Below, in pieces: positions 2-1,315 of a stretch of 12,257 bases of DNA (within the stretch, counting starts at the first letter, position 1; every line of letters starts with the position of its first letter). The stretch is from Terriglobia bacterium (GTDB taxonomy: Bacteria > Acidobacteriota > Terriglobia > Bryobacterales > Bryobacteraceae), in the NCBI GenBank assembly GCA_016650235.1, contig JAENWC010000392.1, forward strand, positions 1 through 12,257, written 5' to 3'. The position numbers and the translations under genes were made by a program. The notes under the pieces were generated by a model that was given only the letters and a program-made list of their open reading frames with translations, was not told the DNA's origin and did no database searches.

Positions 2-1315
2 CAACTGGTCCTACTCGGAATTGCCATCGTGTCAGCCGCTACCGCGGCGCCCAAGAAATCCACCGAGGTCACCTTCTATAAGGATGTGCTCCCGGTGTTG
101 CAGAAGAACTGCCAGGAATGCCACCGCACCGGTGAAGCCGCGCCGGTCCAGTTCTTCACGTATAAGGAAACCCGTCCGTGGGCCAAGGCGATGAAGGAAG
201 CGGTGCTGAGCAAGCGGATGCCGCCGTGGTTTGCCGATCCGCACGTGGGCAAGTTCACCAATGACCGGTCCATGTCTCAGGAAGAGACCAACACGCTCAT
301 TTCCTGGGTGGAGGGCGGGGCCAAGGAAGGCAGAGAGAAGGACGCTCCGCCGCCGCGCCAGTTCCAGCAGGGTTGGGTGATTGGAAAGCCCGACGTTGTA
401 TTCGAAATGCCGGAGCCGGCCGAAGTCGCCGCCACAGGCACGATCGAATATACCTATTACATCGTTCCCACCGGTTTCACGGAGGACAAATGGATTCAGT
501 TTGCCGAAGCCCGCCCTGGCAACCGCGCCGTGGTCCATCACATCATCGCTTTTGTGCGCGACCCGCAATCCAAGTGGCTGCGTGATTACCCGGCTGGCAA
601 GGCATTCATCCCCAAGGGCAGCCGCGGTGGCGGTGGCAGCCAGGGGGGCGTGGGAGGCGGCGAGTTCCTCTCCGGCTATGCGCCGGGCGCGCCCCCGGAA
701 ATGCTGCGTCCCGGTCAGGGCAAGAGGATCCGGGCCGGCTCGGACATCGTCTTCCAGATGCACTATACGGTCAACGGCAAGGCGGCCTCGGACCGCTCCA
801 AGGTTGGCATTATCTTTTCGAAAGAGCCCCCCACGCAGCGCGTGCTGACCCTGGCGGCCCAGAACGGCAAGTTCGTGATTCCTCCGGGAGCGCCCGCCCA
901 CGTCGTCGATGGAGCCATTACGCTGCATGCCGATTCTCAATTGATCTCCCTGCTTCCGCACATGCACCTGCGCGGCAAGTCCATGGAGATGCGCGCGGTC
1001 TACCCCACCGGCGAGACTGAGAAACTGCTCTGGGTCCCGGGCTACGACTTCAACTGGCAGCTCTGGTATCAACTACCGGAGGGCAAGATCCTCCCCAAGG
1101 GGACGCGCATTGAAGCAACCGCGACATTCGACAATTCCGCTAACAACAAGCACAATCCCGATCCGACCAAGGAAGTCCGCTGGGGCGACCAGAGTTGGGA
1201 AGAGATGATGATCGGCTTCTTCAACGTCGCCGTGGATGTGAAGATGGACCCGATGCAACTGCTGCGGCCGCCCAAGAAGCCGGCGGCGGCAACCACCACC
1301 GGCACAGAGGAGTAA
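2..1315 (+). CDS. Secreted c-type cytochrome domain (CxxCH) fused to PHM/DBH-like type II copper monooxygenase core; 5' end (signal peptide) runs off the window
   Basis: The frame is open from nt 2 and encodes a hydrophobic QLVLLGIAIVSAATAAPKK, which looks like the h-region and AxA site of a signal peptide. The ORF track starts at GTG 29, but a CxxCH protein needs export, so the true start is probably upstream. CQECH lies at aa 28-32 of the track protein, followed by RMPPW; ORF3 repeats the same domain. Copper-site-like motifs are VVHH (170-171), QMHY (H245), PHMHLRGK (H311/H313) and EEMMIG (M393/394). Their spacing resembles the CuH/CuM sites of peptidylglycine alpha-hydroxylating monooxygenase. 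A Gly-rich linker GSRGGGGSQGGVGGG is present. The stop codon is TAA at 1313-1315. Confidence 0.8.
   Translation, partial: QLVLLGIAIVSAATAAPKKSTEVTFYKDVLPVLQKNCQECHRTGEAAPVQFFTYKETRPWAKAMKEAVLSKRMPPWFADPHVGKFTNDRSMSQEETNTLISWVEGGAKEGREKDAPPPRQFQQGWVIGKPDVVFEMPEPAEVAATGTIEYTYYIVPTGFTEDKWIQFAEARPGNRAVVHHIIAFVRDPQSKWLRDYPAGKAFIPKGSRGGGGSQGGVGGGEFLSGYAPGAPPEMLRPGQGKRIRAGSDIVFQMHYTVNGKAASDRSKVGIIFSKEPPTQRVLTLAAQNGKFVIPPGAPAHVVDGAITLHADSQLISLLPHMHLRGKSMEMRAVYPTGETEKLLWVPGYDFNWQLWYQLPEGKILPKGTRIEATATFDNSANNKHNPDPTKEVRWGDQSWEEMMIGFFNVAVDVKMDPMQLLRPPKKPAAATTTGTEE

Follow-up and report, generated by a model that had tools for sequence, protein, structure and literature searches.

A haem c domain fused to a predicted PHM/DBH-type two-copper core in a large family of bacterial proteins

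Contig JAENWC010000392.1 from a Terriglobia bacterium of the Bryobacteraceae (assembly GCA_016650235.1) was analysed over its whole length, positions 1 to 12,257, which we call the window, and the first open reading frame in it, ORF1, encodes a protein in which a c-type cytochrome domain precedes a copper core of the kind found in PHM and DBH. In those enzymes one copper site, CuH, takes up electrons and the other, CuM, activates O2. A preliminary description of the window, made from the letters alone, had proposed two redox modules in a single polypeptide, and the alignment of the ligands together with the predicted fold bear this out. As regards fold and ligands the PHM interpretation is supported, and judged from the alignment all six copper ligand positions of PHM are filled in ORF1. 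Fold, equivalence and conservation of the ligands, family size, the obligate linkage of haem and copper domains, the export signal and the organisation of the gene cassette come directly out of the analyses described below.

The AlphaFold2 model built from the family alignment (predicted local distance difference test 81.5, predicted template modelling score 0.76) starts with a helical domain, which is followed by a double jelly roll of two consecutive beta-sandwich domains; two beta-sandwich copper domains were what the preliminary description had expected. Foldseek returned, as its top 31 matches in the PDB, entries of rat PHM and two human DBH chains (4zel, at ranks 21 and 26), with E-values between 6e-15 and 2e-11 over about 295 columns and an identity of 16-19%. 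When the family alignment was compared by hhalign with the catalytic core of rat PHM, whose sequence is identical to chain 1OPM_A, a single colinear alignment was obtained (E 0.009, probability 4.4%, with one single sequence as template). It pairs VVHHIIAF with TVHHMLLF, FQMHYT with LQVHYG, PHMHLRGK with VHTHHLGK, QLWY with QAFY and SWEEMM with SSDEMC, so that H179, H180 and H254 correspond to H107, H108 and H172 of PHM, and H320, H322 and M402 to H242, H244 and M314. Q252 and Q353 fall on Q170 and Q272, two glutamines of PHM that lie near the copper sites and for which roles in the transfer of electrons and in activating O2 have been proposed.

The features of ORF1 are given below, with conservation counted in 150 representatives of clusters at 50% identity, which are 34-60% identical to ORF1 and were mapped onto it.

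2-1315, forward strand: ORF1, cytochrome c plus PHM-like two-copper protein, a coding sequence partial at its 5' end; homologues are 59-90% identical
2-55, forward strand: remnant of a Sec-type signal peptide, QLVLLGIAIVSAATAAPK, aligned to complete leaders of homologues, e.g. MRIKLALLGIAIMSAAAAAP of the homologue P0001
65-346, forward strand: cytochrome c domain, residues ~22-115, helical and PccH-like
110-124, forward strand: CQECH, haem c attachment motif, residues 37-41 (C37, C40 and the predicted proximal ligand H41), invariant in 112/112
218-229, forward strand: MPPW, residues 73-76; M73 is the inferred distal haem ligand, at a 31-residue distance from H41, kept in 123/123
374-850, forward strand: first jelly-roll domain, residues ~125-283, corresponding to the CuH domain of PHM
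536-541, forward strand: H179-H180, predicted CuH ligands, aligned by hhalign to PHM H107-H108, kept in 145/146
755-763 (H254 at 761-763), forward strand: Q252-M253-H254; H254 is the predicted third CuH ligand (PHM H172), kept in 150/150, and Q252 (PHM Q170) is kept in 118/150
851-1246, forward strand: second jelly-roll domain, residues ~284-415, corresponding to the CuM domain of PHM and the only part matched by Cu2_monoox_C
959-967, forward strand: H320-M321-H322, aligned to PHM H242-T-H244, predicted CuM ligands, each His kept in 146/149
1058-1060, forward strand: Q353, second-sphere CuM residue (PHM Q272), kept in 147/148
1205-1207 (the MM pair at 1205-1210, residues 402-403), forward strand: M402, predicted CuM thioether ligand (PHM M314), kept in 141/142

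A script check found the motifs CQECH, MPPW, HH, the lone His, HxH and the Met all at the places where the preliminary description had put them, and the spacings of 74, 66 and 80 residues between the copper ligands were as it had said. The conservation that it had expected among relatives was also found, as the predicted copper and haem ligands are 98-100% conserved in the 150 representatives. The second Met of EEMM, M403, is variable (97/141), which makes M402 the ligand candidate. A separate alignment covered 65 long relatives with several domains, whose identity to its first sequence is 27-52%; ten of the 20 invariant columns in it are predicted metal ligands. Taken as sequence, the pattern of motifs is far beyond chance. 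Within the CuH-type domain the model has a low-confidence Gly-rich loop (nt 620-655), and the length of this loop varies among homologues.

Curated profiles saw less of this than the model did. Against Pfam, ORF1 gave a weak match to Cu2_monoox_C (PF03712; 17.2 bits against a cut-off of 23, E 0.0037, residues 287-383) and none to Cu2_monooxygen (PF01082), so neither domain model exceeded its gathering threshold; of the Pfam hits that the preliminary description had predicted, the C-terminal copper domain thus came out weakly, while the N-terminal one and PSCyt1 did not appear, the latter being without a match in the scans of ORF1 and of its homologues. Cytochrome_CBB3 was also below threshold (E 0.01), no curated cytochrome c model in Pfam recognises ORF1 above threshold, and the NCBIfam scan of ORF1 gave nothing relevant. 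Among 38 close homologues PF03712 is weakly present in 33 and PF01082 in one, certain remote relatives reach an E-value of 2.5e-8 for Cu2_monoox_C, and precomputed PF03712 matches are present on some family members. The link to the copper family is already latent in the databases. Since the curated profiles gave matches below threshold only, the assignment to the family rests on structure.

ORF1 shares with PHM (the catalytic core of rat PAM; PDB 1PHM, 1OPM and 1SDW) the double jelly roll and the set of CuH and CuM ligands, at an identity of 17-19%, and differs from it in several respects. The residues that anchor peptidylglycine in PHM, R240, N316 and Y318, are replaced by L318, I404 and F406 in ORF1; in the 150 representatives position 318 is M, L, F, T or A and never Arg, and position 404 is I, V or L and never Asn. 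PHM has intradomain disulfides, whereas the only two Cys of ORF1 are both in CQECH, and ORF1 is bacterial, has an N-terminal haem c domain and lacks a PAL partner. Because the residues that bind peptidylglycine are absent, we regard ORF1 on sequence grounds as a PHM/DBH-type copper core and not as an orthologue of PHM, and its predicted substrate must differ from peptidylglycine. In the comparison with DBH, tyramine beta-monooxygenase and MOXD (PDB 4ZEL), DBH uses ascorbate and has a dimerisation domain, which the ORF1 protein lacks. According to a 2025 review, the extra domain of DBH is a DOMON domain and not a c-type cytochrome (PMC12164859). The loop F-D-N-S-x-N-N-x-x-N-P-D of ORF1 (residues 376-387, nt 1127-1162) is near-invariant in the family and has no counterpart seen in the alignment with PHM; D377, N378, S379, N381, N382, N385 and P386 are invariant in an alignment of 37 homologues, and the loop could be an element for binding substrate or calcium.

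For the haem domain, weak matches were found to PccH, a monohaem cytochrome c of Geobacter sulfurreducens (4RLR), and to the C-terminal haem domain of hydrazine synthase alpha (5C2V), both of which differ from ORF1 in that its haem module is fused to a copper enzyme. Among 117 full-length representatives of at least 400 amino acids, 108 carry CxxCH and then MPP ahead of the copper core, and in almost every one listed CxxCH starts 36 residues ahead of MPP. This fixed spacing, together with its invariance, makes M73 the predicted distal haem ligand. The remaining nine, of 406-525 amino acids, are without the CxxCH-MPP unit, and so are all representatives of at most 370 amino acids, which look like N-terminally truncated fragments. 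Read from these sequences, the cytochrome c module is a near-constant, obligate partner of the copper core.

Relatives of ORF1 run into the thousands. A word-indexed search gave at least 8,000 candidates, and a full HMMER scan, for which the query was the copper part only (window 359-1312), gave 10,131 clusters at 50% identity with E <= 1e-3, of which 1,651 had E <= 1e-30. In the species genomes of GTDB, relatives were found at no fewer than 589 places; the best 80 of these are nearly all in Acidobacteriota, mostly in Bryobacterales, and include the isolate Paludibaculum fermentans, and the best match among them is 70% identical to ORF1. One member of the type described next, with an AhpC domain, comes from the Pirellulaceae.

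Of the 117 full-length representatives 60 are extended at the N-terminus by over 150 additional amino acids. When 65 long relatives were scanned, an AhpC/TSA/Redoxin domain was found N-terminal to the cytochrome-copper unit in 50 of them. The domain has a single conserved Cys, another Cys some 127 residues further on and no CxxC, and P0129, P0152 and P0177 are among the relatives that carry it; ORF1 and its close clade do not have this domain. Other fusions among these relatives are EF-hands (9/65), CBM48-like domains (3/65), alpha/beta-hydrolase, a PQQ-type propeller and a BlaR1 M56 domain. Fused carbohydrate-binding modules were considered as a sign of a polysaccharide substrate, and this was rejected, CBM48-like domains being too few for a general conclusion. 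In public databases the proteins of the family are called "hypothetical", "cytochrome c", "thiol-disulfide isomerase" or "peroxiredoxin", the last two because of the AhpC/TSA/Redoxin domain in relatives, and none of the names mentions copper.

Translation confirmed the frame and the coordinates of ORF1. It is free of stops for 437 amino acids from nt 2 and ends with TAA at 1313-1315; the product length of 428 amino acids in the preliminary description had come from a mechanical GTG start at nt 29, in the same frame, and 437 codons lie in the window. The true start, as placed by homologues, has been lost with about three codons beyond the edge of the contig. In the alignment with 37 homologues P0001, which is 89% identical to ORF1, starts MRIKLALLGIAIMSAA, and the complete Sec-type leaders of these homologues confirm that the signal peptide is cut by the edge of the window. 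By this comparison the hydrophobic run from nt 2 is the body of such a leader, and the product is predicted to be exported, to the periplasm or another extracytoplasmic location. A scan of window 1-3400 for promoters and terminators gave nothing above shuffled expectation.

The function that we consider probable is, as in the preliminary description, that of a hydroxylase with a built-in cytochrome donor, in which electrons would pass from haem to CuH and on to CuM and O2; metal occupancy, the direction of the electrons and the O2 chemistry are what we infer here. The protein would hold three redox centres, a His/Met-ligated haem c, a CuH site of three His (H179, H180 and H254) and a CuM site of two His and a Met (H320, H322 and M402). 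The haem would draw single electrons from a periplasmic pool, possibly from the cytochrome encoded by ORF3 downstream, and relay them to CuH and from there to CuM, where the reduced copper would bind O2, abstract hydrogen from a C-H bond of the substrate and hydroxylate it. Bacteria are generally without ascorbate and cytochrome b561, and the tethered cytochrome would replace this eukaryotic supply. The reading of the haem as electron donor is strengthened because the cytochrome module is near-constant with the copper domain (108 of the 117). The same design, a haem domain feeding single electrons to a mononuclear copper, is known from three-domain copper nitrite reductases with a fused cytochrome c, and from cellobiose dehydrogenase, whose cytochrome domain reduces lytic polysaccharide monooxygenases. 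These enzymes are related to ORF1 neither in the copper fold nor in the ligand set or the chemistry, and the likeness is one of analogy and not of homology.

Several points weigh against a hydroxylase of this kind. A one-electron haem would have to supply two electrons per turnover, and electrons could also flow in reverse. The monothiol AhpC/TSA domain in about half of the full-length representatives has a role that the donor scheme leaves unaccounted for. Neither Pfam nor NCBIfam classifies the ORF1 protein, and a sequence-profile search of the PDB with the family alignment misses PHM and DBH, giving weak matches to cytochromes only. Clustering of the neighbourhoods of 81 distinct loci gave no conserved catabolic neighbour, nor one that would indicate a substrate, and in the literature searched there were no biochemical data for any member of the family.

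If the electrons did flow outward, the same three centres would make a dehydrogenase or oxidase, in which copper oxidises an organic or inorganic reductant and the haem passes electrons to the respiratory chain, or, in a variant, copper would reduce O2, H2O2 or nitrite, as in the cytochrome c-tethered nitrite reductases. A haem c tethered to a copper domain is silent on the direction of the electrons, nitrite and azide bind at PHM (by the titles of PDB entries 3mlk, 3mib and 3mll), and some hosts, e.g. Paludibaculum fermentans, are facultative anaerobes. Nevertheless, a set of three His and of two His and a Met with equivalents of Q170 and Q272 is the signature of the O2-activating chemistry of PHM and DBH, and there is no Cys ligand, hence no type 1 copper of the kind in nitrite reductase, as all cysteines of ORF1 are in CxxCH. 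We find outward flow unlikely. Slightly less likely again is an enzyme linked to peroxide, a peroxygenase or peroxidase whose copper uses or removes H2O2 or organic hydroperoxides, with the haem as relay and the AhpC/TSA domain in the same function. That 50 of the 65 long relatives have this domain in its form with a single conserved Cys, and that some sources call proteins of the family "peroxiredoxin", fits such a function, but the domain is absent from ORF1 and its close clade and is therefore accessory. When uncoupled, enzymes of PHM type give off H2O2, so that self-protection would explain a fused peroxiredoxin just as well, and no residues of peroxidase type were identified.

The proteins might also not be catalysts, and have kept the PHM fold for binding, trafficking or sensing copper in the periplasm. 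The heavy-metal-binding neighbour of about 290 amino acids (CPMD...CPRCGM) at 17 of the 81 loci, described below, agrees with this, as does the want of a substrate-related neighbour at these loci. However, the window and most of the loci lack that neighbour, which lies on the opposite strand, a redox haem that is obligately fused has no obvious role in copper storage, and two ligand sets and the second-sphere Gln are strictly kept over thousands of clusters, which is typical of a catalytic site. We hold this to be very improbable. Each of these explanations is made less likely because the PHM-like ligand set is specific and the second-sphere residues are conserved, and a hydroxylase fed by its own cytochrome is the reading that we prefer.

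ORF1 is the first gene of a cassette, in which ORF1 and ORF2 are separated by 4 nt and ORF2 and ORF3 by 5 nt.

1320-1811, forward strand: ORF2, remnant of a second paralogue, "B", aligned to intact B paralogues of 421-452 amino acids
1817-2485, forward strand: ORF3, secreted cytochrome c of 222 amino acids, which also has a single jelly roll of CuM type that lacks the copper ligands; the gene is conserved as the last in the cassette

Related loci have from one to four full-length paralogues in tandem, an ORF3-like protein of 205-250 amino acids follows the paralogues in roughly half of the 81 distinct loci, and several metagenome-assembled genomes have more than one such locus. Among relatives with a long contig the closest one (locus L084) carries an intact B paralogue of 424 amino acids. 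Compared with it, ORF2 has kept MKALA, lost residues 6-46 with the leader and CxxCH, kept 15 residues of the haem domain (PMPLLTYKDARPWAK) and lost residues 62-278 with MPPW and the whole CuH domain; both deletions are in frame, and the positions of start and stop are retained when set against intact B copies. The whole CuM-type domain remains, with HMH at nt 1485-1493 and EEMM at nt 1725-1736. ORF2 may be in decay, may have been selected as a short form or may have arisen as an artefact of the assembly.

In ORF3 the haem module is repeated, as the preliminary description had noted, with CGSCH at nt 1943-1957 and MPPW at nt 2048-2059; the protein P0271 (locus tag JJE04_20795) is 100% identical to it. 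A colinear hhalign comparison had suggested that its beta domain is a truncated CuH domain, and this was rejected, as the domain matches the CuM domain when compared separately. The family of ORF3 has an invariant His (His22 in ORF3, nt 1880-1882) right after the predicted signal-peptidase site, in the context A-x-A | H-D/E-x-I-T-T-K-L-T-W and 21 residues before CxxCH, and the mature protein is predicted to start with it. Such an N-terminal His recalls the histidine-brace copper proteins, or the N-terminal ligation of haem in cytochrome f. Besides the haem ligand there is no second invariant His in the ORF3 family, and the Met of MPPW is invariant as well.

Just downstream of the ORF3-like gene and convergent to it, 17 of the 81 loci have a gene for a protein of about 290 amino acids with a heavy-metal-binding motif (FICPMD...CPRCGM), e.g. 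L007:6515-7414 on the reverse strand. The window lacks this gene, which may connect the cassette with the supply of copper. The other recurrent neighbours are flagellar genes and a short-chain dehydrogenase, and these two we attribute to synteny among close relatives. Further along the window, 3594-5660 on the reverse strand encodes a protein of 688 amino acids with an SPFH/Band 7 domain (residues 357-546), preceded by three tandem repeats with a core of about 40 residues, H-x-x-F-Q-D-G-E-x-F-L-x-N-G-G-Q-x-G-P-Q-...-P-G-x-Y-R-I-N. The reading frame at 5677-6297, also on the reverse strand, matches an amino-acid permease over its C-terminal third only (profile positions 264-399 of AA_permease_2, and AA_permease_C); this is the second apparently truncated gene on the contig, and an intact permease of 618 amino acids lies near the cassette in another locus, L002. 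On the forward strand an extracytoplasmic function (ECF) sigma factor at 6453-7031 (Sigma70_ECF, E 3e-57) shares its last 40 nt with the start of the next gene, at 6992-9901, which encodes a Ser/Thr protein kinase of 969 amino acids with a C-terminal PD40/TolB-like propeller, and the two are probably a regulatory pair.

PHM, DBH and TBM stand in textbooks as the non-coupled binuclear copper monooxygenases, and the long-range electron transfer from CuH to CuM and the activation of O2 in them are still debated. A review of metalloproteomes names PHM and DBM as cuproproteins of eukaryotes only (PMC7435645), a survey of folds describes PHM as widespread in eukaryotes (PMC8812541), and the passages searched in the 2025 review of PHM and DBM make no mention of bacterial homologues (PMC12164859). 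The literature searched contained no account of bacterial enzymes of PHM/DBH type or of a fusion of them to cytochrome c. The copper core is the same as in PHM and DBH, and the new part would be the built-in electron supply, the different substrate and a large unrecognised bacterial radiation.

A wider proposal, which we put forward tentatively, as one that may well turn out otherwise, is that the PHM/DBH class has a very large unrecognised bacterial branch, with 10,000 or more clusters at 50% identity from Acidobacteriota and Planctomycetota, which is wired by cytochrome c and uses periplasmic electrons instead of ascorbate. Tandem arrays and multiple loci would then make up a new family of extracytoplasmic C-H hydroxylases with diverse environmental substrates, and cytochromes of ORF3 type, with their invariant N-terminal His, would be dedicated partners. 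If the proteins are active, they would provide a bacterial model that is free of disulfides and has a spectroscopic donor built in, the haem allowing the delivery of electrons to CuH to be triggered and timed, and they would show how chemistry of PHM/DBH type is driven in the absence of ascorbate. There would be thousands of candidate extracytoplasmic hydroxylases in abundant soil bacteria such as the Bryobacterales, and these hydroxylases might take part in turning over organic matter or in modifying peptides and natural products.

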